Positions 7,071-48,326 of a stretch of 64,000 bases of DNA are shown in pieces. Below the pieces are notes generated by a model, which made no database searches, was not told the origin of the DNA, and saw only the letters and a list, made by a program, of their open reading frames with translations. The stretch covers positions 9,637 through 73,636 of the forward strand of contig JABWBQ010000006.1 of NCBI GenBank assembly GCA_013360395.1. The letters are read 5' to 3'. Each line of letters begins with the position of its first letter. Position 1 is the first letter of the stretch. The DNA is from Flavobacteriales bacterium (lineage in GTDB: Bacteria > Bacteroidota > Bacteroidia > Flavobacteriales_F > PHOS-HE28). The translations under genes were made by a program, and so were the position numbers.

Positions 7071-7190
7071 GGCCACCGAAGAGCGGGGTGGTTCGCGCCG
7101 TGCATACGCGATCCGGCCTCCAAGGTTCCCGCCCTGAACGGTGAAGGGCCGGGAAGCTCCCGGCCCTTCACCACGATGCCGCTCCTCCGG

Positions 7191-14770: not shown

Positions 14771-15749
14771 TCCGCAGGACACCATGTACCTCACCGGTTA
14801 CCGGGGCACCCTGTGCGGCTACGACAGCAGCTGCGTGTTCGCTTACGTGGGCGATACCATCGTGCCCAGCCCCTACCGGGCGCCGGTGCTGCACCACGGT
14901 CCCACCAGCTACGTGGGCTTCGCCTTCAAGTACCAGGGCGTGCCCTACATCACCGGCCTGTTCTACGACCCCCTGCAAGGGCAGTACTACAGCTTCATGC
15001 GCTGGAACGGAGCGGCCTGGGAGGCTGTGCCGGGGTGGAGCACCCTGGACCCCATCAAGGACGTGCTGATCAAGGATGGCTGGCTGTACGTGTGCGGGTG
15101 GTTCTTCGAGGCGGGCGGCGCGCCGGGCAACATGGTGGCGCGCTTCAACGGAACCCAGTGGCAGACCTTGGGCAGCGGGCTTCTGTACGACCTGCCGGCC
15201 AGCAGCTCGGGTGTGGCGCTGGACCTGCACGCGTGGAACGGCGACCTGTACGTGGCCGGGCAGTTCAACTACGCCGGTGGGGTGCCGGCGGAGAACGCCG
15301 CGCGCTGGGACGGCAGCCGCTGGTGCGGCCTGGGGGGCAGCTATGCCATGCAGACCCCGGGTGGGAAAGCGAACGGGTTCACCGTGTGGCGCGATGAACT
15401 GTACATGTCAGGCGGCTTCGTCACCATCGACGGGGACACCCTGTGGCACGTGGCGCGGTGGCTGGGCCAGGTGGAGAACTGCAGCGCCCCGGTGGCGGTG
15501 ATGGAAACGGCGGAGGAGGACCAAGCCCCGTGGTTGATCCCCCTGGAGCCCGGCCGGTGGCGACTTCGACTGCCGACAGGTGTGGTGGGCCAGTTGGCCG
15601 TGTGGGATGCGCAAGGCCGCTTGGTGCTGATGCAAAGCAATGCCCGTGACGGCCACGTTGTGGACCTGGCCGCAGCTGCACCAGGCGTGTATCTGGCGCG
15701 TTTGGAGGAAGCGAACGGTGCGGTGCGATCGGTTAAGGCCCTGCGATGA
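14771..15749 (+). pseudogene. 5'-truncated T9SS cargo gene (beta-propeller-like repeats plus type A C-terminal sorting domain)
   Basis: Frame-3 ORF 14346..15749 makes sense only from about DTMYLTGYRGTLCGYD onward. It has repeated G.F.....W.G..W (propeller-like) and ends WRLRLPTGVVGQLAVWDAQGRLVLMQSNARDGHVVDLAAAAPGVYLARLEEANGAVRSVKALR (type A CTD). There is no signal peptide or N-terminus; it abuts the IS30 fragment. Confidence 0.6.
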
Positions 15750-15763
15750 TGCGTTGATCGCCC

Positions 15764-16450
15764 TCACGCCGTCGCCGCCGTGCATACGCTCACCCGCAGG
15801 TCGGGCACGCACAGCAACGCACGGATGCAGCCTTCCAGGGTGGCGCCGGTGGTGACCACATCATCAATGAGCAGCACATGCGCGCCGGCGAGGGGCCGGG
15901 TGTCGCCGAGCTCGAAGGCCTCCTTCACGTTGGTCCAGCGTTCCCAGCGGCCTTTGCGGGTCTGGGTGGTGGTGCGCACCACGCGCATCAGCCCCTGGTC
16001 GGGCAGGCACAGGGGCCACAGCTCGCGAAAGCCGTCCACCAGCACCTGGCTCTGGTTGTAGCCGCGCTCGCGCAGCCGCCGCGGATGCAGCGGTACGGCC
16101 AGCACATGGTCCACGGTGGCGAATCGGGGACTGGTGCGCAGCGCCTCGGCCATCCACCGGCCCAGCTCGAGCCCCACGGCCTGGTCGCCTTGGTATTTCA
16201 GCCGGTGCAGCATCCGTTGCACGCGGCCCCTGCGGTTGAACTGCAACAGGGCTGCGGCCGCCTGCACCGCCACTTTGCCGTGGAAGAGCCGTTCCACCCG
16301 GTTGTCCGCCTGCAGGTGCATGCCGGTGCGCGGCAGGTCGTGCAGGCAGGGCAGGCACACGGCCCTCTCGTGCGCCATCAACGGGCGGTCGCAGGCACTG
16401 CAGCAGCGCGGAAGGAAGAGGTCGGCAGCATCCAGCAGCCAGCGCCCCAT
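15764..16450 (-). CDS. comF: ComF family protein (phosphoribosyltransferase-type, ComFC)
   Basis: LLDAADLFLPRCCSACDRPL...CLPCLHDL zinc-finger-like N-terminus and C-terminal PRTase motif VLLIDDVVTTGATL. Start chosen at M18 of the track ORF (16450), which fits the typical ComFC N-terminus; ATGs at 16474 and 16501 are alternatives. Confidence 0.8.
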   Translation of the reverse strand: MGRWLLDAADLFLPRCCSACDRPLMAHERAVCLPCLHDLPRTGMHLQADNRVERLFHGKVAVQAAAALLQFNRRGRVQRMLHRLKYQGDQAVGLELGRWMAEALRTSPRFATVDHVLAVPLHPRRLRERGYNQSQVLVDGFRELWPLCLPDQGLMRVVRTTTQTRKGRWERWTNVKEAFELGDTRPLAGAHVLLIDDVVTTGATLEGCIRALLCVPDLRVSVCTAATA

Positions 16451-35891: not shown

Positions 35892-36523
35892 CCCCCAAGG
35901 TGATCCGCACCAGCATCGTCGAGGACGACCCCACCATCCGGGAGACCCTTCGCGCCCTCTTCACCTTCGAGGGAGGCTTCGAGCTCTTCACCGTGCACAG
36001 CACCGCCGAGGATGCGCTGCTGCGGTTGCACGACAGGTGCCCGGACGTGGTGATCATGGACATCAATCTGCCGGGAGCGAGCGGGATCGACCTGGTGCGG
36101 CAGCTCAGCAGGCGGTGCTGTGCCACGCAGTTCCTGATGTACACCGTGCACGACGACGACCACCGCGTGTTCGAGGCCCTGAAGGCCGGTGCCAACGGCT
36201 ACATCCTGAAGGGCAGCACCCCGGACGAGATCCTGGAGGCCGTGCGGGAGCTGCACCTCGGGGGAAGCCCCATGAGCGCCCCGGTGGCGCGGCGCGTGGT
36301 GGCCCACCTGCGTCCGCAACAGGGTGGCGGGGTGGCCGATGCCGGGCTCACCGAACGCGAGCAGCAGATCCTCGCCCTCCTGGCGCAGGGCCTGCTCTAC
36401 AAGGAGATCGGCGACCGCCTGGGCATCACCGTGGGCACCATCAAGCAGCACATCCACAGGATGTACGAGAAGCTCCACGTGCAGAACCGCACCGAGGCGG
36501 TGAACCGCTTCTTCGGCCGCTGA
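35888..36523 (+). CDS. response regulator, NarL/FixJ (LuxR) family
   Basis: REC domain (IVEDDPTIRE...VVIMDINLPG) plus C-terminal LuxR HTH (LTEREQQILALLAQGLLYKEIGDRLGITVGTIKQHIHRMYEKL). Confidence 0.9.
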   Translation: MTPKVIRTSIVEDDPTIRETLRALFTFEGGFELFTVHSTAEDALLRLHDRCPDVVIMDINLPGASGIDLVRQLSRRCCATQFLMYTVHDDDHRVFEALKAGANGYILKGSTPDEILEAVRELHLGGSPMSAPVARRVVAHLRPQQGGGVADAGLTEREQQILALLAQGLLYKEIGDRLGITVGTIKQHIHRMYEKLHVQNRTEAVNRFFGR

Positions 36524-36581
36524 GCACCGGAACGAACGGTCCGTGGCCTCCGGCACCCCGCTTTCCCGGTTATTTCGTGCC

Positions 36582-37172
36582 ATGGCGAAGCAGGACCTGG
36601 TGCGCTGCCCCTGGCCGGGCACCGATGCGCGCATGATCGCGTACCACGACACCGTGTGGGGTGTTCCCGAGCACGACGACCGCAAGCTCTACGCGAAGCT
36701 GGTGCTCGACGGCGCGCAGGCCGGCCTGAGCTGGAGGACCATCCTGCACCGCAGCGAGGGCTACCGCAAGGCCTTCCACGACTGGAACGTGGAGCGCATC
36801 GCCCGCTATGGCCGCAAGGACGTGGAACGCCTGCTCGCCGATGAGGGGATCATCCGCAACCGCGCCAAGGTGGAGAGCGCCATCAACAACGCCCGGGCCT
36901 GGCTGGCGGTCATGGAGGGCGGCCCAGGGTCGTTCAACGACCTGCTCTGGAAGCACGTGGACCACCGCACCATCGTGAACCCCTGGCGCGAGAACGCCCA
37001 GGTGCCGGCCAGCACGCCCGTCTCGGACGCGTTGAGCAAGGAGCTGAAACGCGCGGGATTCACCTTCGTGGGCAGCACCATCGTCTACGCCTTCATGCAG
37101 GCCGTGGGCATGGTGGACGACCACCTGGTGGGCTGCTGGCGAAAGCCCGGGGCCGGGGCCCGCTATCTTTGA
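36582..37172 (+). CDS. tag: DNA-3-methyladenine glycosylase I
   Basis: CPWPGTDARMIAYHDTVWGVPEHDDRKLYAKLVLDGAQAGLSWRTIL... is the Tag signature. Start at M14 of the track ORF (the 36543 start is an alternative). Confidence 0.85.
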   Translation: MAKQDLVRCPWPGTDARMIAYHDTVWGVPEHDDRKLYAKLVLDGAQAGLSWRTILHRSEGYRKAFHDWNVERIARYGRKDVERLLADEGIIRNRAKVESAINNARAWLAVMEGGPGSFNDLLWKHVDHRTIVNPWRENAQVPASTPVSDALSKELKRAGFTFVGSTIVYAFMQAVGMVDDHLVGCWRKPGAGARYL

Positions 37173-37264
37173 TCGGGCATGGCCGCCGGAGCGTACCTCG
37201 CTGCGCCGATGGACCGGGAAGCGGAGCACCTTCCGCGCCGGAGCGCGGCCCATCGTACCCATCC

Positions 37265-38098
37265 ATGAGCACGGGAAGGTCATCGGTCTCGCCCATCCGG
37301 ATGCGTCGTGTGGTGCCGGAGGGCTGCACCGAGGCCGACGACCTGCTGGTCACCGAGGAGCCGCTGGAGATCCGCCTGGGGCACGGGCCCGTGGAGGACC
37401 GCAGGGAGATCCGCCTCAGCGTCACCATGCGCACACCGGGCCACGACGGGGAGCTTGCCCTGGGTTTCCTGTTCACCGAGGGACTGATCGCGTCGGCCGA
37501 CGAGGTGGTGCGCGTCACCGTCTGTGCGAACGTGAAGGAGGAGGAGCGGGGCAACGTGGTGCGTGCGGAACTGCGGCCCGACGTGGCCGTGGACCCCTCG
37601 CGCTGGCAGCGCAACTTCTACGTCACCAGCAGCTGCGGCGTATGCGGCAAGAGCAGCATCGAGGCCGTCCAGGTGTTGCGCCAGCACCCGCTGCGGCCTT
37701 GGGGCGCCATCGAGCCCGCCCTGATCCGCACGCTGACGGACCGCATCGGCGAGGCCCAGACCGTGTTCCGCCGCACCGGTGGCATCCACGCTGCGGCGAT
37801 CTTCAACCGCGCCGGCGAACTGTTGCTGCTGCGCGAGGACGTGGGCCGCCACAACGCCGTGGACAAGGTCATCGGTGCGGCCCTGCATACCGGGATGGAC
37901 CGCACCGACCACATCCTGCTGGTGAGCGGCCGCGCCGGGTTCGAGCTGGTGCAGAAATGCGTGGTGGCCGGCATCCCGTTGATGGCCGCCGTGGGGGCGC
38001 CCTCCTCCCTGGCCGTGCGCCTGGCCCGGGAAAGCGGCCTCACCCTGGTGGGCTTCCTGCGCGAGGGACGCTTCAACCTGTACGCGGGGGAGCTCTGA
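37265..38098 (+). CDS. fdhD: formate dehydrogenase accessory sulfurtransferase FdhD
   Basis: EEPLEIRL, SSCGVCGKSSIE and GGIHAAAIF...HNAVDKVIGAAL are FdhD motifs. Track ORF starts on TTG at 37169 (overlapping the tag stop); the first ATG at 37265 gives 277 aa. Confidence 0.8.
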   Translation: MSTGRSSVSPIRMRRVVPEGCTEADDLLVTEEPLEIRLGHGPVEDRREIRLSVTMRTPGHDGELALGFLFTEGLIASADEVVRVTVCANVKEEERGNVVRAELRPDVAVDPSRWQRNFYVTSSCGVCGKSSIEAVQVLRQHPLRPWGAIEPALIRTLTDRIGEAQTVFRRTGGIHAAAIFNRAGELLLLREDVGRHNAVDKVIGAALHTGMDRTDHILLVSGRAGFELVQKCVVAGIPLMAAVGAPSSLAVRLARESGLTLVGFLREGRFNLYAGEL

Positions 38099-38130
38099 AC
38101 CACGCCCCGCGCCGCGAGGCTCCTGACCGG

Positions 38131-38397
38131 TTACCGCCAGTAGTTGTTGGCCGCGGCCACCGTCTGGAAGTTCAGCGCCACCACCTGCGAGGCCATCGTG
38201 AGGCTGTCCGCGTTCTCCGCGTAGGCCGGACGCAACCGGTCGCGCACCTCGGCCGAGGGCTGCGTGTACTTCACCCCCATGCGCGCGAGCTTGATGGCCA
38301 GTTCAAAGCCTTCCTGCGGGGTCTTGGTGATCAAGGTGGTGAGCCAGGTTTCCATGATGGTCGATGCATTGATGGGACGATGGACAAGGTACTTCAT
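38131..38397 (-). CDS. small hypothetical protein
   Basis: 88-aa ORF (MKYLVHRPINASTIMETWLTTLITKTPQEGFELAIKLARMGVKY...) with protein-like composition; no recognised domain. Start uncertain (M at 38418, 38397 or 38352). Confidence 0.35.
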   Translation of the reverse strand: MKYLVHRPINASTIMETWLTTLITKTPQEGFELAIKLARMGVKYTQPSAEVRDRLRPAYAENADSLTMASQVVALNFQTVAAANNYWR

Positions 38398-38445
38398 CCG
38401 GCACGGGCCGGCGTGCACTTCCGCCGCCGGTGGCGGCGACCAGGT

Positions 38446-38838
38446 TCAGTACAGCCCCCGCAGCTTCGCCATCCACCACGGCGCCAGCGCGGTCACCACC
38501 GGCACCAGCACCCAGATGCGTCCCCGGGTGAGGTCGTAGTCGAGCAACAGTTCGCTCCACGGTTTCTTGAACAGGAAGTGCCCCGCACCGAACTCGAACC
38601 CTAGCGTGAGCCCGAGCCAGCACAGCCCGATGGCCCAGGCCTGCGGTGCTGTGGCGGGCCCCAGCCAGCGGATGCCGAGCCACGTGGCCAGCAGGATCAG
38701 CCCGCACAGCATCAGGGTGCTGATCGCGAGACCCGCCGTGAGGCCCGTGTACGGGATGATGAACTTCACCCGCACCGTGCCGTTCGCGATCGCGAGCACC
38801 ATCAGCAGGAACCAGAAGAGCAGGGTCTTCCACCACAT
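38446..38838 (-). CDS. hypothetical membrane protein (4 TM)
   Basis: MWWKTLLFWFLLMVLAIANG... has four hydrophobic helices and W-rich composition typical of small membrane proteins. Confidence 0.5.
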   Translation of the reverse strand: MWWKTLLFWFLLMVLAIANGTVRVKFIIPYTGLTAGLAISTLMLCGLILLATWLGIRWLGPATAPQAWAIGLCWLGLTLGFEFGAGHFLFKKPWSELLLDYDLTRGRIWVLVPVVTALAPWWMAKLRGLY

Positions 38839-39011
38839 GACGGTCGTTTTCCGAAAGATGGCGATGCCCCACCGCGCGGGGAATGTCGAAGGTCAGGCCG
38901 CGGACCGGCGGTATTCATCGCCGGCGTTCACGGGAACACGACCTTACGGCAGTCCGGCAGGTGGCGACGGTGCGGCGGGTGTTGCGGGTGCTTGTGTGAG
39001 CGGGATGATCG

Positions 39012-39125
39012 GCGGGCTCTTAACGCTACCATGTCGCCCTCGGCGATGCCGTAGTCGGCGGTCGCCCTAAGGCTTGATCGTGAGCACATGCTCGGTGGGG
39101 ATCACCCCTTCGCTTGTGCGGTATC
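39012..39125 (-). pseudogene. relic fragment of an FdsA-like (formate dehydrogenase alpha) C-terminal region
   Basis: Minus-strand translation reads ...RTSEGVIPTEHVLTIKP*/ATADYGIAEGDM in two frames with a stop. It matches fdsA ...RTANSTILTEDVLMIHPEDAAKHGIAEGDMV; nucleotides 39029..39052 (ccatgtcgccctcggcgatgccgt) are identical to 40270..40293 inside fdsA. Confidence 0.45.
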
Positions 39126-39172
39126 ATGGGGTACAGCGCCAATGGCGCGGCCTTCGTCTATCTTTGAGCATC

Positions 39173-39406
39173 ATGCTCGACTGGCATCAGCATATCGCGG
39201 CCGATCCCCAGGTGATGTACGGCAAGCCGTGCATCAAAGGCACGCGCATTCCGGTGGACCTGATCCTCGACAAGCTGGCCGCCGGGCAGAGCGTGGATGA
39301 TCTGCTGGAGGGTTACCCGCAGCTTACCCGGGAGCATGTGCAGGCCTGCCTGCAGTATGGTGCGGACTCCGTTCGGAACGACATCGACCTACCCTTCGCT
39401 TCCTGA
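39173..39406 (+). CDS. DUF433 domain protein (putative antitoxin-like partner)
   Basis: M34 of the track ORF: MLDWHQHIAADPQVMYGKPCIKGTRIPVDLILDKLAAGQSVDDLLEGYPQLTREHVQACLQYG is the canonical DUF433 fold; it is followed after 6 nt by the DUF5615 gene. Confidence 0.7.
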   Translation: MLDWHQHIAADPQVMYGKPCIKGTRIPVDLILDKLAAGQSVDDLLEGYPQLTREHVQACLQYGADSVRNDIDLPFAS

Positions 39407-39412
39407 TCGGCC

Positions 39413-39763
39413 ATGCGTTTCGTGGCCGATGAATGCCTCGATGCGCGCATCATCAAGCGCCTCGTTGTCGATGGACATGACCTCGTGGTCGTACGCACCG
39501 AGCTGACCGGCCGCAAGGATGAGGATGTGTTGCGCATCACACGGGACCGCGACGCCATGCTCATCACGGAGGACAAGGACTTCGGTGAACTGGTCTTCCG
39601 GCTCAAGGCCGTTCACGCGGGCGTGGTGCTCGTGCGCATGCACGGGCTTACGGGAGCCGAACAGGCCCAGCGCGTTTCACAAGCTGTGAAGGACCACGGT
39701 GCTGAATTGCTGAACGCATTCACCGTGATCACCGGGAAGCGGCTGAGGATCCGCCGGGGTTAG
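39413..39763 (+). CDS. DUF5615 family PIN-like protein (putative toxin-like partner of DUF433)
   Basis: MRFVADECLDARIIKRLVVDGHDLVVV...ITEDKDFGELV is the DUF5615/PIN-like pattern, usually paired with DUF433. Confidence 0.7.
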   Translation: MRFVADECLDARIIKRLVVDGHDLVVVRTELTGRKDEDVLRITRDRDAMLITEDKDFGELVFRLKAVHAGVVLVRMHGLTGAEQAQRVSQAVKDHGAELLNAFTVITGKRLRIRRG

Positions 39764-40039
39764 TTCCTCAGCGGTACATCACCAGCCTTCCGCAAGCCGG
39801 CCTACGGCAGGAAAATGCACCAGATCAGGCTTTCACCGTCACCTCACCGGCCTTTATAATTGATAGGGCGGATCAATGCTTTGATCGACACGCCGCTGGC
39901 TGGGCACGATTCGTATAGAACGAGCAACGCTGATCGAAAACTTTGACCCACCGACTCAATAGGTGCGCCTTTCCCGCTTCACAGGACTTCGCTCGTTCCT
40001 CGCTCAGCCCCGCATGGCGGGATCTCGCTTTGCTCAACT

Positions 40040-42973
40040 TCATTTCAAAAGGACTTCACCCGCGTTCCGCGTGTGGGCTTTCCGCGCCTTCCTGATCCTG
40101 CAGCTCACCACCTTGTATTCAGGACACTTGGCCTCACTGTCGTGCACGTCGCTGGTGATCACGTTGAGCATGATCTCCGGGAAGTGGAAGGTGCTGCTGA
40201 GGATGCCGGGCCTCACCTCATCGGTGATGCGCGCCTTGATGTCCACCTTGCCGCGCGGGCTCTCCACGCACACCATGTCGCCCTCGGCGATGCCGTGCTT
40301 GGCGGCGTCCTCGGGGTGGATCATCAGCACGTCCTCGGTGAGGATGGTGCTGTTGGCCGTGCGCCGCGTCATGGTGCCGCTGTTGTAATGCTCCAGCTCG
40401 CGGTTGGTGGTGATGATGTAGGGGTAGTCCTTGCCGTGGTCCAGCACCTCGCGGCTCTCCTGCCAGTGCGGCGCGATGAACCGGCCTTTGCCGCGCTTGA
40501 AGGTCTCGGTGTGCAGGATCTTGGTGTCGGTGCCGTCCGCCGCCACGGGCCACTGCTTGCCGTTGTCGCCGAGGTTCTCCCAGCGGATGCCCTTGAAGAA
40601 GGGCACGATGGCGCTGATCTCCTTCAGGGCCCAGGCGGGGTGGTAGCTGGTGCGCGTGACGGTGCGCCCGCCCTCCTGCACTTGTTGCTGGTACTTGGCG
40701 ATGCTCGGTGCCGCCCCGCGGCCGTTGCTGAAGGGGTTGGGCAGGCCCAGGCGTTCGGCCAGGCGCTCGGTGATGTCCACGATGATCTGCCCGTCGGACC
40801 GCGTGCCGGGCAGCGGGTCCACCGCGGCCTGCACACGCTGCACGCGGCGCTCGCCGTTGGTGAAGGTGCCGCTCTTCTCCAAGAAGGTGGCGCCGGGCAG
40901 GATCACATCGGCGTAGCGGGCGGTCTCGGTCATGAAGATCTCCTGCATCACCAGCAGGTCCAGCCCCTCCATGGCGCGGATCACCTTGTTGGTGTTGGGA
41001 TCGGTCTGCACCACGTCCTCGCCGATGAGCCAGAGCGCCTTGAGGCGGCCCTCGATGGCGGCGTCGAACATCTCGGGGATCTTCCAGCCGTTGCGGTCCG
41101 GCACGGGCACGCCGTAGTGCTCGCGGTAGATCCGGTTCACGTCGGCCTGCTCCACCTCCAGGTAGCCCGCGCCCTGGTGCGGCTGCGCGCCCATGTCGGC
41201 CGCTCCCTGAACGTTGTTCTGGCCCCGCAGCGGGTTCACGCCCACACCGCGCCGGCCGATGTTGCCGGTCATCATGGCCAGGTCGGCGATCTGCATCACC
41301 GTGAAGGTGCCCTGGGAGTGCTCGGTGACGCCCAGGCCGTGGAAGCTCATGGCGGCCGGTGACTTGGCGTAGGCGATGGCCGCACGGCGCACCTGCTCAC
41401 GGTCCACGCCGGTGACCTGCTCCATGCGGTCCACGTCCAGCGCCAGCAGCTCCTTGCGGAAGGCCTCCCAGCCCTCGGTGCGCCGGGCGATGAACTCCTT
41501 GTCCACCAGATCCTCCTTGATGATGTAGTGCATCATCATGTTGAGCAGGGCCACGTTGGTGCCGGGCCGCAACTGCAGGTGATGCGTGGCGTAGCGCGCC
41601 AGGTGGATGCGACGCGGGTCGATCACGATCAGCGTCTTCCCCTTCATCACCTGCTGCTTGATGCGTGCGCCCGTCACCGGGTGCGCATCGGTGGGGTTGG
41701 CGCCGATCAGCAGGATGGTGTCGGTGTCGCTCAGGTCGTCGATGCTGTTGGTGGCGGCGCCGGTGCCGTAGGTCTGCTGCATGCCCAGCGCGGTGGGGCT
41801 GTGGCACACGCGCGCGCAGCAGTCGATGTTGTTGGTGCCCACCACCGCGCGCATGAACTTCTGCATCAGGTAGTTCTCCTCGTTGGGGCAGCGCGCGCTG
41901 CTGATGCCGGCGATGGCGTCGGGGCCGTGCTCCTCCCGGATCCGAGCCAGACGGTCCACGATGAAGGCGTAGGCCTCGTCCCAAGTGGCGGGCTCGAACG
42001 TGCCGTTGCGTTTGATCAGCGGGGTGCGCAGGCGGTCGGGGTGGTCGTAGAAGCTGAAGGCATAGCGGCCCTTCAGGCAGGTGTGGCCCTGGTTGGCCTC
42101 GGCGCTGTACGGCGCGCGGATGCTCACCACCTTCTCGTCCTTCACGTTCACCTCCAGGTTGCAGCCCACGCCGCAATAGGTGCACACGGTGCGCACCACC
42201 TTGTCCGGGATGTTCTCCTTGCTGCGGAACACATCGGTGATGGCGCTGGTGGGGCAGGCCTGCGCACAGGCGCCGCAGCTCACGCAGTCGCTGTCGAAGA
42301 AGCTCTCGTCGGTGCCCTTCACGATGTGGTTGTCGAAACCGCGCCCGGCCATGGTGAGCACCATTTCCCCCTGCACCTCATCGCAGGCGCGCACACAACG
42401 GAAGCAGCCGATGCACGCGCTGAGGTCTGATACCATATAAGGATGGCTCGTGTCCATCGGCGTGTCCAAATGGTTCCTGCCTTTCGGGTAGCGCACGCTG
42501 TCGATGTCGAAGCCCACCTGTTGCACCACGTTGTACAGTTCGTTGCGGCCGTGGTCCTCGGTCTTCAGGCGCTCGGTATCATAATCGGTGAGCACCAGTT
42601 CCACGATGTTCCGGCGCAGCCGCTCCATGCGGGGGCTGTTGGTGGTGATGTACATGCCCTTGCCCACGGGGGTGTGGCAGCTGGCCATCACTTTGGAAGG
42701 GCCATCCTCCTGCAGGGCCACTTCCACCGAGCACACACGGCAGCTCCCGAAGGGTTCCAGGTTGGGCGCATCGCAGAGCGTGGGCACGGGGTTGGGCCCG
42801 ATGTGCCGCCGCATGAACGCGAGCATGGTCTCCCCCTTGCGGATGGGGTACGCCTGGCCATCGATGAAGGCGACGTCCACATCGGCGGCCACCTGGTTGG
42901 ACGTGGTGGGCGCGCCTTGCGTGCGTGCGACGGGAGCAGCGGCGGTTCCGTGCTTGGCTTGGGGCGTGTTCAT
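40040..42973 (-). CDS. fdsA: NAD-dependent formate dehydrogenase alpha subunit (FdsA/FdhF type: 2Fe-2S, 4Fe-4S and molybdopterin-bis-PGD domains)
   Basis: The track translation shows four regions: (1) N-terminal ferredoxin-like segment IDGQAYPIRKGETMLAFM...CRVCSVE; (2) 4Fe-4S clusters (CIGCFRCVRAC, CVSCGACAQACP); (3) CTYCGVGCN molybdopterin-oxidoreductase Fe-S domain with a Cys (not Sec) active site SARCPNEEN; (4) C-terminal molydop_binding. Start at M13 (MNTPQAKH...). Confidence 0.9.
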   Translation of the reverse strand: MNTPQAKHGTAAAPVARTQGAPTTSNQVAADVDVAFIDGQAYPIRKGETMLAFMRRHIGPNPVPTLCDAPNLEPFGSCRVCSVEVALQEDGPSKVMASCHTPVGKGMYITTNSPRMERLRRNIVELVLTDYDTERLKTEDHGRNELYNVVQQVGFDIDSVRYPKGRNHLDTPMDTSHPYMVSDLSACIGCFRCVRACDEVQGEMVLTMAGRGFDNHIVKGTDESFFDSDCVSCGACAQACPTSAITDVFRSKENIPDKVVRTVCTYCGVGCNLEVNVKDEKVVSIRAPYSAEANQGHTCLKGRYAFSFYDHPDRLRTPLIKRNGTFEPATWDEAYAFIVDRLARIREEHGPDAIAGISSARCPNEENYLMQKFMRAVVGTNNIDCCARVCHSPTALGMQQTYGTGAATNSIDDLSDTDTILLIGANPTDAHPVTGARIKQQVMKGKTLIVIDPRRIHLARYATHHLQLRPGTNVALLNMMMHYIIKEDLVDKEFIARRTEGWEAFRKELLALDVDRMEQVTGVDREQVRRAAIAYAKSPAAMSFHGLGVTEHSQGTFTVMQIADLAMMTGNIGRRGVGVNPLRGQNNVQGAADMGAQPHQGAGYLEVEQADVNRIYREHYGVPVPDRNGWKIPEMFDAAIEGRLKALWLIGEDVVQTDPNTNKVIRAMEGLDLLVMQEIFMTETARYADVILPGATFLEKSGTFTNGERRVQRVQAAVDPLPGTRSDGQIIVDITERLAERLGLPNPFSNGRGAAPSIAKYQQQVQEGGRTVTRTSYHPAWALKEISAIVPFFKGIRWENLGDNGKQWPVAADGTDTKILHTETFKRGKGRFIAPHWQESREVLDHGKDYPYIITTNRELEHYNSGTMTRRTANSTILTEDVLMIHPEDAAKHGIAEGDMVCVESPRGKVDIKARITDEVRPGILSSTFHFPEIMLNVITSDVHDSEAKCPEYKVVSCRIRKARKAHTRNAGEVLLK

Positions 42974-43113
42974 GGGCTGCTGGGCTTCAAGGACGAAGAT
43001 AGGAAGCACGTCAAGGTAGGCGTTGGGACAGCTCGACAGGAGCCTTGGGTGATCGCGGGGGGGGGAGAGGGATCTGCGATGGAATGCTCATCTTCGTGGG
43101 AAACCGCATCCGC

Positions 43114-43662
43114 ATGAAACGCGTGATCGACCTGCACGCCATCGGCGAGCGCATCCAGTTCAACGACGCGCGCGAGCGCACCAACGGCCAACGCAGCGAG
43201 GCCACCTTGAGCCTGGGACCGGGCAACAAAGGCCCGGGAGCGCACATCCACATCGGGCAGGATGAGGGCTTCAAGGTGAACAGCGGGAAGCTCATCGTGA
43301 CCATCGGGAAGAAGGAAGTGACGCTCGGCCCGGGGGAAAGCGCGGTGATCCGCTCCGGGGAAGCGCACAACTTCCGCAACGCGAGCGATACCGAACGTGT
43401 GGAGGCCGATTTCTGGTACGAGCCCGCCTTGCACATCGAGTGGATGCTGCAATCCATGGGCGACACGGCCATGGAACGCGGTGGCGATTGGCACAAGGTG
43501 CCGCCCCTGGCCGCCATGCACCTGCTGTGGAAGATGCGGATGGAATACCGGCTGGCGGGCATGCCGTTCTGGTTGCAGGATGCGCTATTCGGCTTCGCCT
43601 CGCTGCTCGCACGGCTCACCGGGGCGCACAAGCTATGGCCGCTGCCTCCGGATCTCCGTTAG
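43114..43662 (+). CDS. cupin domain protein
   Basis: Two cupin motifs (GPGAHIHIGQDEGFKV and GPGESAVIRSGEAHNFRN); start at M24 of the track ORF (alternative M14 at 43084). Confidence 0.7.
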   Translation: MKRVIDLHAIGERIQFNDARERTNGQRSEATLSLGPGNKGPGAHIHIGQDEGFKVNSGKLIVTIGKKEVTLGPGESAVIRSGEAHNFRNASDTERVEADFWYEPALHIEWMLQSMGDTAMERGGDWHKVPPLAAMHLLWKMRMEYRLAGMPFWLQDALFGFASLLARLTGAHKLWPLPPDLR

Positions 43663-43790
43663 GTTCCGGGCTGTAGTGGCCCGGTTGGATCCGGGTTGCG
43701 CTGGAGGATGGGAAGCAGGTACTCCCCCTTCTTGATGGGATACACCTTGCCATTGATGCGGGTGCCGTCCACCTCAGCAGCACTTGGTCG
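43662..43790 (-). pseudogene. relic fragment of an FdsA/NuoG-like N-terminal 2Fe-2S segment
   Basis: C-terminus of minus ORF 43659..44069 reads VDGTRINGKVYPIKKGEYLLPIL, matching fdsA IDGQAYPIRKGETMLAFM. Nucleotide identity is about 78% over about 50 nt (against about 30% expected by chance). The rest of that ORF is junk and it abuts the cupin stop. Confidence 0.4.
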
Positions 43791-44266
43791 GCGGGGGCGG
43801 CGGAGCGACGGGCATGCGCACGGCCGGTGCAGCAGGGCACTTGGATGTGTCGAGGCCGACGACAGGCGAAGTGATCCGGCGGTGTTCCACCGCGCATTGC
43901 ACGATCGATCCGTGGTGCGCCACAGCGCGCTGGAAGAGCTCCTTACATGTCGCATCGATGCACAAGGTGTGTCACATGCGGTCGCATCATCGCGCGTTGG
44001 ATCGCCAGTCGAAGTGATGTGATGATCGTGTCGGAACACGGATGCGCGAGCGATGAGGATGAAAGGCACGATGTGCGGAATGCCGCTTGCACCAAGGGTT
44101 GCGTGAGGTCGATGCGCAGCGCATCATGCACATCGCATCGTGTGCATGCGCGTGGTCGGGGATCGGTCCGCATCGTTATCAACAATATTTGGTTGGAACA
44201 TCTTTGCAACCTTTTGATGCGCACAAGCGTTCGAGGTGATACGTTTGTCTCAAACCCTTAACCGTC

Positions 44267-44383
44267 ATGGCAAAGAAGGCAGCTAAGAAGGCCACGAAGA
44301 AGGCCGCGAAGAAGGCGACCAAGAAGGCCGCCCCGAAGAAGGCCGCGAAGAAGGCCACGAAGAAGGCCGCGAAGAAGAAGTGA
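44267..44383 (+). CDS. histone H1-like lysine/alanine-rich microprotein (38 aa)
   Basis: ATG GCA AAG AAG ... TGA encodes MAKKAAKKATKKAAKKATKKAAPKKAAKKATKKAAKKK. It is preceded by a lower-GC stretch (44161..44266) and followed by two perfect hairpins. Seen only as the antisense FFAAFF run in track ORF 44179..44682. Bacteroidota carry similar KKAAKK histone-H1-like genes. Confidence 0.55.
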   Translation: MAKKAAKKATKKAAKKATKKAAPKKAAKKATKKAAKKK

Positions 44384-44404
44384 GGAGCTGTGCTCCGAAC
44401 GTTC

Positions 44405-44462
44405 GAAGGGCCCGGTCTCCGGGCCCTTCGCCATTTCCGACGCACCGCACCGCGGTGCGTCG
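44405..44462 (+). terminator. tandem perfect hairpins between convergent microprotein and fdsB genes (bidirectional terminator candidate)
   Basis: gaagggcccgg-tct-ccgggcccttc (11-bp stem) and cgacgcaccgc-ac-cgcggtgcgtcg (11-bp stem) followed by tgctttcaaa. Confidence 0.55.
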
Positions 44463-44524
44463 TGCTTTCAAATGGATCGTTCCTCACGGGCCGCGCCGGG
44501 CATTGCCGGCGGGTCGTGCGCTGC

Positions 44525-46210
44525 TCAGGCGAAGGCGGTGCGCAGTTCGTCCGCGAAGTAGCGCAGGGCGTTCCGCACGCCGAGGGGCAGGCCGCCGCCC
44601 AGGGCGCACAGCGAACCGATCTCCATGGTCTCGATGAGGTCCTCGAAGAGCGCGCGGTCCATCGGGCGGCCTGCACGCACACCCTGGATGAGCTCCCGGC
44701 CCCGCACCGAACCGATGCGGCAGGGGAAGCACTTGCCGCAGCTCTCGGCTTCGGTGAACGCGAAGAGGTGCTCCAGGTATTCGATCATGGGAAAGCCTGC
44801 CGGGATGCTCAGCACGCTCGCATGCCCGAGCAGGAAGCCTTCCTTCTGGAAGCTCTCGAAATCGATCGAGAGGGCGTTGACCTTCTCCAGCGGCACGATG
44901 CCGCCGAGCGGACCGCCGATGTGCAGCGCCTTGGTGGGGCGGGCAAAGCCCTGACCGAGCTCGTCGATCACACGGGCGAGCGGCGTGCCGCACTCCACCT
45001 CGTACAGGCCGGGGCGGTTGAAGCCGCTGTCCAGGCACACGAGCTTGCTGCCGTTGCTCTTCTCACTGCCGAGGCGTGCGAAGGCCGCCCCGCCATGTTC
45101 CACCACCCACGGTACGCACGCCAGCGTCTCCACGTTGTTCACCACCGTGGGCCGGTTGAACAGGCCCTGCTGGGCGGGGTAGGGGGGGCGTGTGCGCACC
45201 TCGCCACGCTTGCCCTCGATGCTGTTGAGCAGCGCGGTCTCCTCGCCGCACACATAGGCACCCGCCGCCTTGATCACCTTGAAGCGCCAGTTGACCCCGC
45301 TGCCCTTGATGTCCGTGCCGATCCAGCCGTTCGCCTCCAGTTCGTGCACCGCGTGGCGCACCGCGGCGATGGCCTCGGGGTACTCCGCCCGGATGTACAG
45401 CACGCCGGTGTCCGCCCCCACGCAACGACCGGCGATCATCATGCCCAGGAGCACGCGGTGCGGACGCTGTTCGAGCAGGTACCGGTCGCTGAAGGCCGCC
45501 GGATCGCCTTCGTCGGCGTTGCACACGATGTACTTGCGCGGGGTGCCGTTGCCGGTGACATCCTCCGCGTTGCGGCACGCCTCGAGCTTGAGGCCCATGG
45601 GGAAGCCCGCACCGCCGCGCCCGCGGATGGTGGCCACCTTGATCTCCTGGAGCACGTCGGCAGGATCGCTCTTCAGCACCCGCTCCCACAGTGCATAGAA
45701 CGCGGGCAGGGGCGGCATGGGCGCCGTGAGGATGGGGTGCTCCATGGTGGTCCCCACATGGTGCGCGCCACCGACGGGCACGGAGGCGGCGCCCGGAGCC
45801 TGCACCAGCTCGTCCAGCCGGTCGATGGCGTCCCCGCTGTAGTTGCGGCCACCCACGTGGAAGGCCCTGTTCTCATGGCAGCGGCCCAGGCAGCACATGT
45901 GCCCGATCTCCTCCTCCTTGAAGTGGCGGCGCAGTTCGTGATGCACCTGTTCCTGCGTGCCCGCCACCAAGCAGGCGCTGCCGTTGCACACGTAGGCCTT
46001 GAGGTCCTTGTTGCCCGGCTTCAGGAAGTCGTAGAAAGTGCTGGTACCGTAAGTGACCGCCTCGCCCACGAGGTAGTCGTCGGCGATGGCCGTGAGCGCC
46101 TCGGTGGACGGTGTGCCCGTCCCCTCCGCCGCCTGCTGCAACCGCTCCCACAGGGCGTCGTCCAGCTCCTTGCCATCCCGGCCGGAGAGGGAGGTGATGT
46201 TCTTGGACAT
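44525..46210 (-). CDS. fdsB: NAD-dependent formate dehydrogenase beta subunit, fused NuoE-like/NuoF-like (FdsGB type)
   Basis: N-terminal thioredoxin-like 2Fe-2S (CNGSACLVAG...CCLGRCHENRAF), then NuoF-like FMN/NAD binding (GRGGAGFPMGLK, CNADEGDPAAFSDR) and a 4Fe-4S site (ESCGKCFPCRIGS). Confidence 0.9.
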   Translation of the reverse strand: MSKNITSLSGRDGKELDDALWERLQQAAEGTGTPSTEALTAIADDYLVGEAVTYGTSTFYDFLKPGNKDLKAYVCNGSACLVAGTQEQVHHELRRHFKEEEIGHMCCLGRCHENRAFHVGGRNYSGDAIDRLDELVQAPGAASVPVGGAHHVGTTMEHPILTAPMPPLPAFYALWERVLKSDPADVLQEIKVATIRGRGGAGFPMGLKLEACRNAEDVTGNGTPRKYIVCNADEGDPAAFSDRYLLEQRPHRVLLGMMIAGRCVGADTGVLYIRAEYPEAIAAVRHAVHELEANGWIGTDIKGSGVNWRFKVIKAAGAYVCGEETALLNSIEGKRGEVRTRPPYPAQQGLFNRPTVVNNVETLACVPWVVEHGGAAFARLGSEKSNGSKLVCLDSGFNRPGLYEVECGTPLARVIDELGQGFARPTKALHIGGPLGGIVPLEKVNALSIDFESFQKEGFLLGHASVLSIPAGFPMIEYLEHLFAFTEAESCGKCFPCRIGSVRGRELIQGVRAGRPMDRALFEDLIETMEIGSLCALGGGLPLGVRNALRYFADELRTAFA

Positions 46211-46224
46211 GCGCTCCGAAGGTA

Positions 46225-46387
46225 GAGGCTATCTCAATAAGAACCTTTGAGCTGCGCGAGGGTCTTTGGCGCCCATACTTGGTTGTGAAAAGCCTTACAG
46301 CGCTACCGACCATGCTCGGCCCTCACGCCTCGCCTGGACGCGAAGTACCGCTCGCTCGTTTGAAAAAAGCATTGTGGAGATAGCCTC
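46225..46387 (+). repeat. dispersed ~160-bp element with 13-bp terminal inverted repeats (copy B)
   Basis: Begins gaggctatctcaa and ends ttgagatagcctc; homologous to 32514..32674; it is responsible for the similar 69-aa artefact ORFs 32456..32665 and 46303..46512. Confidence 0.7.
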
Positions 46388-46483
46388 AAGCGGACCTGGC
46401 GGCTCAGTGGACATGTAGACCCCCGGCCCCTTGCCCGGCATCCGGCCATTCGCCAACTTCGATGTATCAAACCCCGAACGATC

Positions 46484-47461
46484 ATGAAACTCCTGCTCAA
46501 GATCCTCGGCATCCTCCTCGTGCTGGTCGTGCTGGCCGGCCTGGGCGGCTATCTCTACCTGACCCGGGCCCTTCCCGATGTGGACGCCCCTGCCGACCTG
46601 AAGGTGGAGCTGACACCGGACCGCATCGAACGCGGACGTTACCTGGCCAACAGCGTGTGCGTGTGCATGGACTGCCATGCGCAACGGGACTGGAGCCTCT
46701 TCGCCGGCCCTCCCAAACCCGGCACCCTCGGTGCGGGCGGCGACAAGTTCGACCGCACCATGCAGTTCCCCGGCGAGTTCCATGCGCGCAACATCACCCC
46801 CTTCGGGCTGAAGGACTGGACCGATGGCGAGCTGTACCGCGCCATCACCAGCGGTGTGAGCCGGGACGGTCATCCCTTCTTCCCGGTTATGCCCTATCCG
46901 AACTACAACCGCATGGCCACCGAGGACGTGTACGCCATCATCGCCTACCTGCGCTCCCTGGACCCCATCACCACCGCGCCTTTTCCGGAGAGCGTCATCG
47001 ATTTCCCGGTGAACCTCATCATGCGCACGGTACCGGAACCCGCCCGGCCGATGGAACGCCCCGCCCCGGGCGATGCGCAGTACGGCGCGTATGTGATCAA
47101 TGCCGCGGCGTGCATCGAATGCCACACGAACACCGTGCAGGGCGAGCGCATCGGGGAGCCCTATGCGGGCGGCTTCGCGTTCAACTTCCCCGACGGTTCG
47201 GTGCTCCGTTCGGCCAACATCACCCCGCACTCCACGGACGGCATCGGGTCCTGGGACAAGGCGACCTTCATCCGGAAGTTCAAGCAATACACGGACAGCA
47301 CCTACGTGCCGGAGCGGGTGGCACCGGGTGCGTTCCAGACCGTGATGCCCTGGTCGATGTACGCCACCATGACCGAACAGGACCTGGGCGCGATCTACGA
47401 CTACCTCGCCGCGCTCAAGCCGGTGGCCGGCAAGGTGGAGAAGTGGACCCCGGCGCCATAG
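46484..47461 (+). CDS. diheme c-type cytochrome (membrane-anchored)
   Basis: MKLLLKILGILLVLVVLAGLGGYLYL N-terminal TM/signal; two CXXCH motifs (CMDCH and CIECH). Confidence 0.8.
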   Translation: MKLLLKILGILLVLVVLAGLGGYLYLTRALPDVDAPADLKVELTPDRIERGRYLANSVCVCMDCHAQRDWSLFAGPPKPGTLGAGGDKFDRTMQFPGEFHARNITPFGLKDWTDGELYRAITSGVSRDGHPFFPVMPYPNYNRMATEDVYAIIAYLRSLDPITTAPFPESVIDFPVNLIMRTVPEPARPMERPAPGDAQYGAYVINAAACIECHTNTVQGERIGEPYAGGFAFNFPDGSVLRSANITPHSTDGIGSWDKATFIRKFKQYTDSTYVPERVAPGAFQTVMPWSMYATMTEQDLGAIYDYLAALKPVAGKVEKWTPAP

Positions 47462-47628
47462 GCCGTTCATGCCCTTTGGACATCCGGTCCCACCGATCCG
47501 CCTGCTCTACTTCCTCAGGCCTCCACCGGGAGACCTGTCCTGTAGGCCCCGCTACACATCAGGTCTTCCGTTCCGCTTGTGAGCGAACAGCCACGCATCT
47601 TCGGCCGCTCTTGAATGTCCACCTGATG

Positions 47629-47802
47629 TCATTCGGTGCTGCGGCCGCGGTGCTTGGGCCTGCGCGCGTATGTCTTGCGGCTTCGCACCACGCGCGGGCG
47701 GAAACGTCCGTCGAAGGCGCCGGCCTCCTTCTGGGCCGCGCGTTTGGCCGAGCGGTCCAGCGAGGCGGGTGTACGGCGCTTGGGCCTGCGCTTCGCGGTC
47801 AT
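47629..47802 (-). CDS. small Arg/Lys-rich protein (57 aa), possibly spurious
   Basis: MTAKRRPKRRTPASLDRSAKRAAQKEAGAFDGRFRPRVVRSRKTYARRPKHRGRSTE; its ATG overlaps the GNAT stop in an ATGA arrangement, but Arg-rich ORFs are common artefacts in 70%-GC DNA. Confidence 0.3.
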   Translation of the reverse strand: MTAKRRPKRRTPASLDRSAKRAAQKEAGAFDGRFRPRVVRSRKTYARRPKHRGRSTE

Positions 47803-48326
47803 GGGCGCAGGATGCCGTAGTAGAGCAGGTCCGTGAACTCGCCCGAGGCGGTGCGGAACTCGCCCCGCAGCACGCCCTCGCGGAGGAAGCCGCACTGCTC
47901 CACCACCCGGATGCTCGCCGCGTTGTCCGGTGCGATGCGCGCCACCGCCTTGCGCATGCCCAGCCTGCCGAAGGCATGGTCCACGGCCCACATCACGCCC
48001 AGGGTGGCGTAGCCCTGCCCGCCGTGCGCTTCGCTGATGAAGTAGGCCACCTCGCACTTGCCCAGGGCGTGGTCGAACTGTTTGAGGATGAGCGCCCCGA
48101 TGGGGTCGGATCCCTCGTAGTCGCGCAGCATGAAGCAGTGGAAGCTGCCCGCCTTGGCCGAGGCCACCAGTTCCTTGAGGTACCTGCGCGTGGCCCCCAC
48201 GTCCGTGCATCGGCTCACGGTCACCGGGAAGTAGGGACGGAGGCGGGCCTGCTCGCGGCTCACCAGGCGGTGGAAGCCCGCATCGTCGGTCTTGCACGCC
48301 GGCTCGATGATGACCGAATCGCTCAT
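47799..48326 (-). CDS. GNAT family N-acetyltransferase (RimJ/RimL-like)
   Basis: M at residue 157 of track ORF 47799..48794: MSDSVIIEPACK..., with the acetyl-CoA motif FISEAHGGQGYATLGVMWAVDHAF. ATGA overlap with yhhQ upstream. Confidence 0.8.
   Translation of the reverse strand: MSDSVIIEPACKTDDAGFHRLVSREQARLRPYFPVTVSRCTDVGATRRYLKELVASAKAGSFHCFMLRDYEGSDPIGALILKQFDHALGKCEVAYFISEAHGGQGYATLGVMWAVDHAFGRLGMRKAVARIAPDNAASIRVVEQCGFLREGVLRGEFRTASGEFTDLLYYGILRP

Follow-up and report, generated by a model that had tools for sequence, protein, structure and literature searches.

How an intact metabolic gene comes to lie between two broken copies of its own ends is the question raised by the fdsA locus of an uncultured, high-GC Flavobacteriales bacterium. 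The locus lies within a 64,000-nucleotide (nt) stretch of its metagenome-assembled genome (contig JABWBQ010000006.1, positions 9,637 to 73,636), hereafter called the window. Here, the gene for the formate dehydrogenase alpha subunit (fdsA, 40040-42973, minus strand, 977 aa) is flanked by a fragment resembling its 5′ end, on the side of the partner gene fdsB, and by a fragment resembling its 3′ end on the other side. The initial annotation recognized both fragments as FdsA-like relics and proposed that an ancestral fdsA next to fdsB had been overwritten or split by one segment of roughly 4.6 kb carrying a complete, diverged fdsA together with accessory genes. The flanking relics are borne out by our analysis; with somewhat better than even confidence, we explain them by layered “insertions with long target duplication” at a recombination hotspot, which would have left two decaying duplicates of the fdsA ends. 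The gene map was built from open reading frames (ORFs), Pfam, and NCBIfam, and the window was compared with related loci (labelled L followed by a number), comprising a clade set of ~19-20 loci and a wider set of ~170.

The intact fdsA and its two flanking fragments

The 3′ fragment (39012-39125, minus strand) corresponds to gene nt ~2600-2719 and the 5′ fragment (43683-43866, minus strand, non-coding) to approximately codons 1-77. When fdsA was searched against the rest of the window by BLASTN, both stood out: the core of the 3′ fragment (39012-39102) is 80.4% identical over 92 nt (78.8 bits, E = 3.5e-16) and that of the 5′ fragment (43714-43833) is 70.2% identical over 121 nt (50.9 bits, E = 1.7e-7), while the third-best match to fdsA anywhere in the 64 kb reaches 37 bits. 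In a TBLASTN search, 43683-43829 matched FdsA residues 20-77 (E = 1e-4), and BLASTX matched the 5′ fragment to the N-termini of ~40 FdsA homologues. The fragment ends just short of the first 2Fe-2S cysteine. A comparison with shuffled sequence had been proposed as a way to refute the relics; the Smith-Waterman scores of the 3′ and 5′ fragments (42 and 26.5) lie above those of 300 dinucleotide shuffles per relic (mean ~11, maximum 16.5) and of 277 real window segments (maximum 19.5). Both fragments are on the fdsA strand and keep the gene order, one on each side of the intact gene. Two details of the initial annotation needed correction, as the nucleotide identity of the 5′ fragment is ~70% (66% column-matched) instead of about 78%, and the perfect match of 24 nt placed at 40270-40293 is actually 25 nt long (39028-39052, identical to 40272-40296).

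The 3′ fragment encodes PTEHVLTIKP followed by a stop codon and then DYGIAEGDMV in another frame, confirming the peptides, stop, and frameshift originally read from it; the frameshift follows from its two repeat blocks, which match at offsets 1243 and 1244. It lacks the last ~215 nt of fdsA. The peptide of the 5′ fragment, VDGTRINGKVYPIKKGEYLLPIL, sits in an ORF of 136 aa (43659-44069) that has no Pfam match and is uncalled in the source annotations. GC content at third codon positions (GC3) in this fragment is 0.66-0.74, compared to 0.87-0.93 in real genes here, and in the ORF, GC is flat across codon positions (0.61/0.61/0.66). The same architecture occurs in more than 20 contigs from several independent samples, with the relics 100% identical in the four loci compared at the nucleotide level, and an assembly artifact is excluded by these independent assemblies. 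Both fragments are true fdsA relics, and neither is a functional gene.

The intact gene scores 785.1 bits against TIGR01591, above the curated cutoff of 666.25, and has the full domain set in Pfam (2Fe-2S, 4Fe-4S, Molybdop_Fe4S4, Molybdopterin, and Molydop_binding). It is assigned as a formate dehydrogenase alpha subunit, a molybdopterin oxidoreductase, with predicted activity and predicted NAD-linked electron transfer with FdsB. The gene fdsB (44525-46210, minus strand) encodes a NuoF-like FMN/4Fe-4S subunit with an N-terminal NuoE-like 2Fe-2S part (Pfam Complex1_51K, NADH_4Fe-4S, and 2Fe-2S_thioredx). With its conserved upstream synteny and amino acid identity of 93.6% to L169 and 88-89% to L094, fdsB is the native anchor of the locus.

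Recurrence of duplicated gene ends in related loci

Fragments of the fdsA 3′ end were detected by TBLASTN and BLASTN 0.4-3 kb downstream of intact fdsA in L001, L091, L093, L094 (two fragments), L095, L098, L099, L100, and L169. Including the window, 3′ relics are present in 10 of the ~19 clade loci with enough sequence downstream of fdsA. For most relics in related loci, the resident gene of the same locus is the nearest (83-98%), with identities of 95-98% in L169, 93% in L098, 91% in L001, 90.6% for the first relic of L094, 88% in L099, and 83% in L091. On their left side, the duplications start at various points within gene nt ~2563-2779, and most relics reach the stop codon. The cargo is small and often lower in GC, including PIN genes (L001 and L094), restriction-modification (R-M) genes (L169), toxin-antitoxin (TA) genes (the window and L100), and, at other loci, uncharacterized ORFs of lower GC. 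Integrase or transposase domains were absent from the cargo ORFs scanned (L001, L094, L095, L099, L100, and L169), and neither an integrase nor a recombinase was found among the ORFs and Pfam matches of window positions 38300-44600. Both fdsA borders are insertion hotspots in this clade. A homologous ORF of 208-215 aa, lower in GC, directly follows the fdsA stop codon in L091 (2710-3357) and L095 (10830-11456); because the fdsA genes of these two loci belong to different subclades, the same cargo stands behind different alleles.

The loci L092 and L001 form a pair in which an empty and an occupied site can be compared, with ~97% identity across 17 kb. Immediately behind the fdsA stop codon, L001 has an 876-bp insertion consisting of a PIN gene and a duplicate of the final 213 nt of fdsA, a repeat that occurs once in the empty site of L092. 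The resident copy in L001 is L092-like on the left and foreign over its last ~50 nt (10 private differences). Its relic is foreign over the first 63 nt (8 private differences), while the right part resembles L092 and passes without a break into the native downstream DNA. This complementary chimerism is predicted by two routes, namely a single crossover with a circle carrying the cargo and a gene-end fragment, or the homologous transfer of a pre-existing cargo-plus-relic arrangement. A homologous PIN cassette (77% nucleotide identity) with a longer relic is found in L094. The relic of L001 thus arose without gene replacement.

At the 3′ border of the window, the cargo is a cassette of 619 nt (39150-39768, plus strand) with two adjacent small genes, DUF433 (39173-39406, 86.9 bits) and DUF5615/PIN-like (39413-39763, 74 bits), both above the Pfam cutoffs and together a putative type II toxin-antitoxin pair. 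The cassette is 85% identical over the 619 nt to L100 11454-12072, with sharp ends, and no terminal repeats were seen at these ends. Its GC3 is 0.76-0.80, compared to ~0.92 in neighboring genes. Read along the fdsA strand, the unit comes after a 3′ relic in L100 and precedes one in the window, and it is a separate, sharply bounded unit. The homology with L100 begins only ~23 nt upstream of the DUF433 start codon (window 39126-39172), and any promoter of the pair would therefore lie in or beside the 3′ relic. Between the fdsA stop codon and the cassette lies a lower-GC spacer of 271 nt (39769-40039, GC 0.55-0.56), which matched no locus and no Rfam family. In the closest relative, L169, the position of the TA cassette is taken by a BglII-like endonuclease and a C5 methylase (2157-4054), followed by a fresh 3′ relic of its own (1782-1973; 15717-15908 on the reverse complement) that covers gene nt 2779-2922 and is 95-98% identical to its own fdsA. 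This relic is a duplicate of the last ~145 nt of fdsA, broken by an insertion of 39-40 nt.

At the 5′ border, the canonical state is fdsA directly after fdsB, which occurs in L001, L085, L087/L090, L092, L096, and distant Bacteroidota, and the ancestral neighborhood assumed in the initial annotation agrees with it. In the window, the 5′-side cargo is a Cupin_2 gene (43084-43662, plus strand, 192 aa, Pfam, start as in the source assemblies) divergent from fdsA and separated from it by a divergent intergenic region of 110 nt (42974-43083), the presumed fdsA promoter region, whose final 33 nt ahead of the fdsA ATG show homology to L094. The order of DUF433/DUF5615 pair, low-GC spacer, intact fdsA, and cupin gene between the relics, as first annotated, agrees with the Pfam and NCBIfam gene calls. 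Since the fdsB-fdsA operon is split by two opposite-strand genes and a relic, fdsA would have to be transcribed alone, uncoupled from fdsB, and would need a promoter within the 110-nt spacer.

The cupin gene stands beside fdsA at the equal position in L169 (93.5% amino acid identity) and L172 (82%) and is absent from ~20 other clade loci. In L172, the order is fdsB, a 174-aa ORF, cupin, and fdsA, and the fdsA allele is quite different (72.5% amino acid identity). The relative L169 shares 93.6% (FdsB), 93.1% (FdsA), and 93.5% (cupin) amino acid identity with the window and ~91% nucleotide identity over cupin-fdsA. Read from the fdsB side, the two are homologous as far as window position 44072 and then again from 43649, a point 13 nt into the 3′ end of the cupin gene, to 40053, 13 nt short of the fdsA stop codon; in place of the 5′ relic, L169 has 1.2 kb of other DNA. 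With L094, the next relative (FdsB 88-89%, and an identical histone H1-like ORF, described below), colinearity breaks at 44066, where L094 has a WG-repeat gene. Within the L169 DNA found in place of the 5′ relic is a 55-aa ORF (7824-7991, minus strand; YDIRGDTVNMASRMGSSGEAG) that resembles, by eye only, the end of a class III adenylate/guanylate cyclase domain. A reverse-strand FdsA-like match beside the cupin gene of L169 was rejected as spurious, because its frame differs from that of the called ORF and it has no BLASTP match.

Other arrangements were seen at the fdsB-fdsA junction. The locus L088 has ~3 kb of cargo there (6943-9733), with a HigB toxin and putative antitoxin, a glyoxalase, a 5-formyltetrahydrofolate (5-FTHF) cyclo-ligase, and MOSC and PDDEXK_3 genes, and the junction is therefore also an insertion site. 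The loci L002 (10001-13000) and L003 (10001-15400) have window-like synteny upstream of an apparently orphan fdsB, after which neither fdsA nor an fdsA relic was found; the fdsA of these genomes may be located elsewhere or lost.

Reconstruction of the locus and competing readings

The intact gene itself has a mixed ancestry. In the FdsB tree, the window groups with L094 (100% bootstrap), whereas in the whole-FdsA tree L094 belongs to a clade with 100% support from which the window is absent, the partner of the window there being L087 (96%). Sliding windows, partition trees, and informative sites were used to locate the conflict. Over fdsA nt 100-720, the window groups with L094 and L095 (bootstrap 97%), and over nt 721-2500 and 2501-2934, it groups with L087 (96% and 90%). 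Informative sites place the breakpoint near gene nt 750 (~window 42224), with counts of 97:16 before and 128:168 after (Fisher 1e-15, a value uncorrected for the scanning of breakpoints). The window lineage is the recombinant, because L094 stays with L095 and its clade throughout, and the exchange predates the split of the window and L169, because L169 fdsA has the same mosaic pattern. The gene has exchanged sequence between lineages, with the first ~750 nt vertical and the remaining 2.2 kb from another sublineage. Of the original proposal, an exchange between lineages is borne out by the tree conflict, but the import of a complete, diverged fdsA is not.

In the reconstruction that we favor, an insertion would duplicate ~100-300 bp of a gene end, such that one copy keeps fdsA intact and the other is left beyond the cargo and then decays; terminal displacement is an alternative name for this process. 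The existing architecture would then have spread between relatives by ordinary homologous recombination. The landing cassettes would be small and accessory or selfish, such as cupin, TA modules, PIN genes, R-M systems, and surface proteins. For the window, this would involve an old homologous exchange inside fdsA, common to L169, and an old cupin insertion at the 5′ border, after which the window kept the upstream duplicate and L169 and L172 overwrote theirs. The cupin insertion is considered old because cupin-fdsA is common to L169 and L172. A separate TA insertion at the 3′ border would have followed its own course, its downstream duplicate later losing the last ~215 nt. Candidate routes are a RecA-dependent single crossover of a circle, homology-facilitated illegitimate recombination, or a recombinase acting in trans. 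We infer that the two relics of the window arose by the same process in two separate events.

Several observations weigh against this reconstruction. The 3′ relic of the window spans only gene nt ~2600-2719, and an extra deletion is needed for it, because other relics reach the stop codon. The 5′ relic is unique among ~20 clade loci, and its secondary loss must be assumed because L169 and L172 have the cupin gene without it. Exact FdsA and exact FdsB look-ups found no empty site for either insertion, as all 23 contigs with identical FdsB are occupied and have the same architecture. Finally, the resident gene is not clearly the closest to the relics. These were compared with 17 alleles and 120 homologues (BLASTN/BLASTX, column-matched identity, and diagnostic sites), and their column-matched identity to all alleles is near equal (66-70% for the 3′ relic and 62-67% for the 5′ relic), which also fits relics of a different, displaced allele. 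Diagnostic sites were split 5 vs. 4 and 5 vs. 3. The alignment of the relics to fdsA and its orthologs, which had been suggested as a means to find the native lineage, supported homology but singled out neither a native nor a foreign lineage.

The alternative closest to the original proposal is a single replacement, in which an incoming segment of cupin, fdsA, spacer, and TA genes inserted by two illegitimate joints and deleted native gene nt ~230-2600, both relics being remnants of one gene. The relics have the order, strand, and positions expected of the two ends of a single gene between the fdsB and FdhD sides, they are no nearer to the resident gene than to other alleles, and at 5 of 6 diagnostic sites the left part of the 3′ relic agrees with L094/type II alleles. 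The incongruent FdsA and FdsB trees also agree with such an event. On the other hand, nt 1-750 of fdsA are the vertical counterpart of L094/L095, and a donor would need to carry the fdsA mosaic already; no donor-like contiguous block was found among the ~170 loci. The single ~4.6-kb segment with fdsA and accessory genes also does not hold in comparison with related loci, since L169 and L172 share only cupin-fdsA, without the relics of the window, and the 3′ cargo of L169 is another one, with a relic of its own. The TA cassette moves independently and has another arrangement in L100, and 3′ relics recur across the clade. Several later losses or replacements would be required because L169 and L172 carry cupin-fdsA without these relics. 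We consider this single event doubtful.

A more specialized version of repeated insertion would make the fdsA ends a dedicated landing pad for selfish cassettes (TA, PIN, and R-M) that lack a recombinase and carry a host gene end as a homology handle, a RecA-dependent “bring-your-own-att” mechanism. If true, it would explain the repeated targeting of one gene end across the clade, the cargo shared behind different alleles (TA in the window and L100, the 208-215-aa ORF in L091 and L095, and PIN in L001 and L094), and the L001 relic that is donor-like on the left and native on the right. This idea is speculative and, in our judgment, rather unlikely.

Site-specific integration would instead involve small elements whose att site lies in the fdsA 3′ end (and 5′ end) and which bring a replacement end, with a recombinase acting in trans or since lost. 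Insertions do recur at this one gene end in many lineages, and in every case the intact copy has been restored as far as the stop codon. However, the duplications start at various points within gene nt ~2563-2779, none of the scanned cargo has an integrase or transposase domain, and the L001 crossover falls inside a 213-nt block of diverged homology with no short identical core, making this explanation improbable. That the fragments are chance similarity, assembly artifacts, or real small genes can be practically discounted: although the 5′ relic lies inside a 136-aa ORF, the relic scores are far above the shuffled and real-sequence controls, the relics are identical across independent assemblies, this ORF is uncalled and without a Pfam match or codon-position signal, the 3′ relic has a stop and a frameshift, and both relics are absent from the nearest relatives.

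The surrounding DNA contains further features of the locus. Between fdsB and the 5′ relic lies a 38-aa Lys/Ala-rich (histone H1-like) ORF (44267-44383, plus strand) with eight 12-nt repeats, which is called as a gene in the source assemblies. Its amino acid sequence is 100% identical in the window, L094 (6090-6203), and L169 (9096-9212), while flanking genes are only 84-94% identical. Window-specific DNA (43867-44071) with no match elsewhere among the compared loci separates this conserved fdsB/H1-like flank from the 5′ relic. The stretch after the 3′ relic (38839-39011) has only a weak 40-nt match (80%, E = 0.002), which corresponds to DNA ~100 nt downstream of the fdsA stop codon in L087/L090. 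In a search of the spacer and the stretches after the 3′ relic and before the 5′ relic across loci, this match and the expected L094/L158 flank were the only matches. Further downstream, the native context consists of a 130-aa membrane protein (38446-38838, minus strand), a small gene (~38130-38355, minus strand; PF11534 according to the source annotation), and FdhD (ORF 37169-38098, plus strand, for which the source assemblies call a shorter 265-aa gene). The small gene, located between the membrane protein and FdhD, encodes a hexameric tyrosine-coordinated heme protein (HTHP) and sits in the formate dehydrogenase neighborhood. In L093 and L095, FdhD and Tag are likewise downstream of fdsA. 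Rfam families were not matched in 36000-48000, and a scan for promoters and terminators yielded nothing beyond the shuffled expectation.

Comparison with known systems

Nobusato et al., in 2000, reportedly described insertion with long target duplication of R-M systems. The insertion of R-M systems that have no mobility genes and are flanked by long target duplications of variable length has been described (Furuta, Abe and Kobayashi, 2010; PMC2853133), and the features used there were applied to the locus: a direct repeat of >30 bp, an insert of <20 kb without mobile-element genes, an empty site, and R and M genes. The repeats in the window are 92-110 nt at 80% on the 3′ side and ~120-185 nt at ~70% on the 5′ side, and those of related loci are 145-290 nt at 88-98%, similarly variable in length. 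The inserts of ~0.7 kb (cupin) and ~0.9 kb (spacer and TA) contain only Cupin_2, DUF433, and DUF5615/PIN_10. The repeat is single in the empty site for L092 vs. L001, and L169 and L094 hold other DNA at the sites of the window. Unlike the R-M insertions, the window carries TA and cupin genes as cargo, R and M genes being found only in L169 (BglII-like R and C5 methylase). Its repeats are old and degenerate (70-80%), one of them truncated, and one gene has been struck at both ends, repeatedly across the clade.

In Rhs, contact-dependent inhibition (CDI), and type VI secretion system (T6SS) effector loci, 3′-end displacement is attributed to homology-facilitated illegitimate recombination (Kirchberger, 2017; PMC5361080), and C-terminal displacement and orphan arrays in these systems are described in the summary of Jackson (2009) and others given in PMC5361080. 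The fdsA loci resemble them in the displaced 3′ fragments downstream of a full-length gene, in the entry of a new end with cargo at a conserved anchor, and in successive events that make arrays (two relics in L094) and spread by homologous recombination. In contrast to Rhs/CDI/T6SS loci, fdsA is a housekeeping-type enzyme gene with no effector/immunity logic and no variable toxin tips, and its old and new ends encode the same C-terminus (80-98% identical) with no apparent diversification. Islands that tyrosine or serine recombinases integrate at gene 3′ ends (attL/attR direct repeats) likewise duplicate the gene end, restore the gene, and leave a relic at the distal border. The fdsA cargo, however, has no recombinase gene and is only 0.45-2.5 kb in size, and the repeat borders are variable with no fixed crossover core. 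As in FdsABG/FdhF-type NAD-linked formate dehydrogenase loci, FdsA scores above the TIGR01591 cutoff, the partner FdsB is encoded, and FdhD is present, but in the window two opposite-strand genes and a relic interrupt the fdsB-fdsA operon.

The locus offers a natural example, from uncultured Bacteroidota, of addiction-type or small cassettes that enter the chromosome without a mobility gene and leave datable scars. It also indicates that a metabolic operon such as fdsB-fdsA can be a recurrent hotspot for insertion and allele exchange, and it calls for caution in annotation because such scars may pass for “gene replacement” or spurious ORFs. Set beside the known systems, the locus is a further example of a known rearrangement scar and not a new kind of system, and its most interesting aspect is that such scars recur at one metabolic gene throughout a clade.

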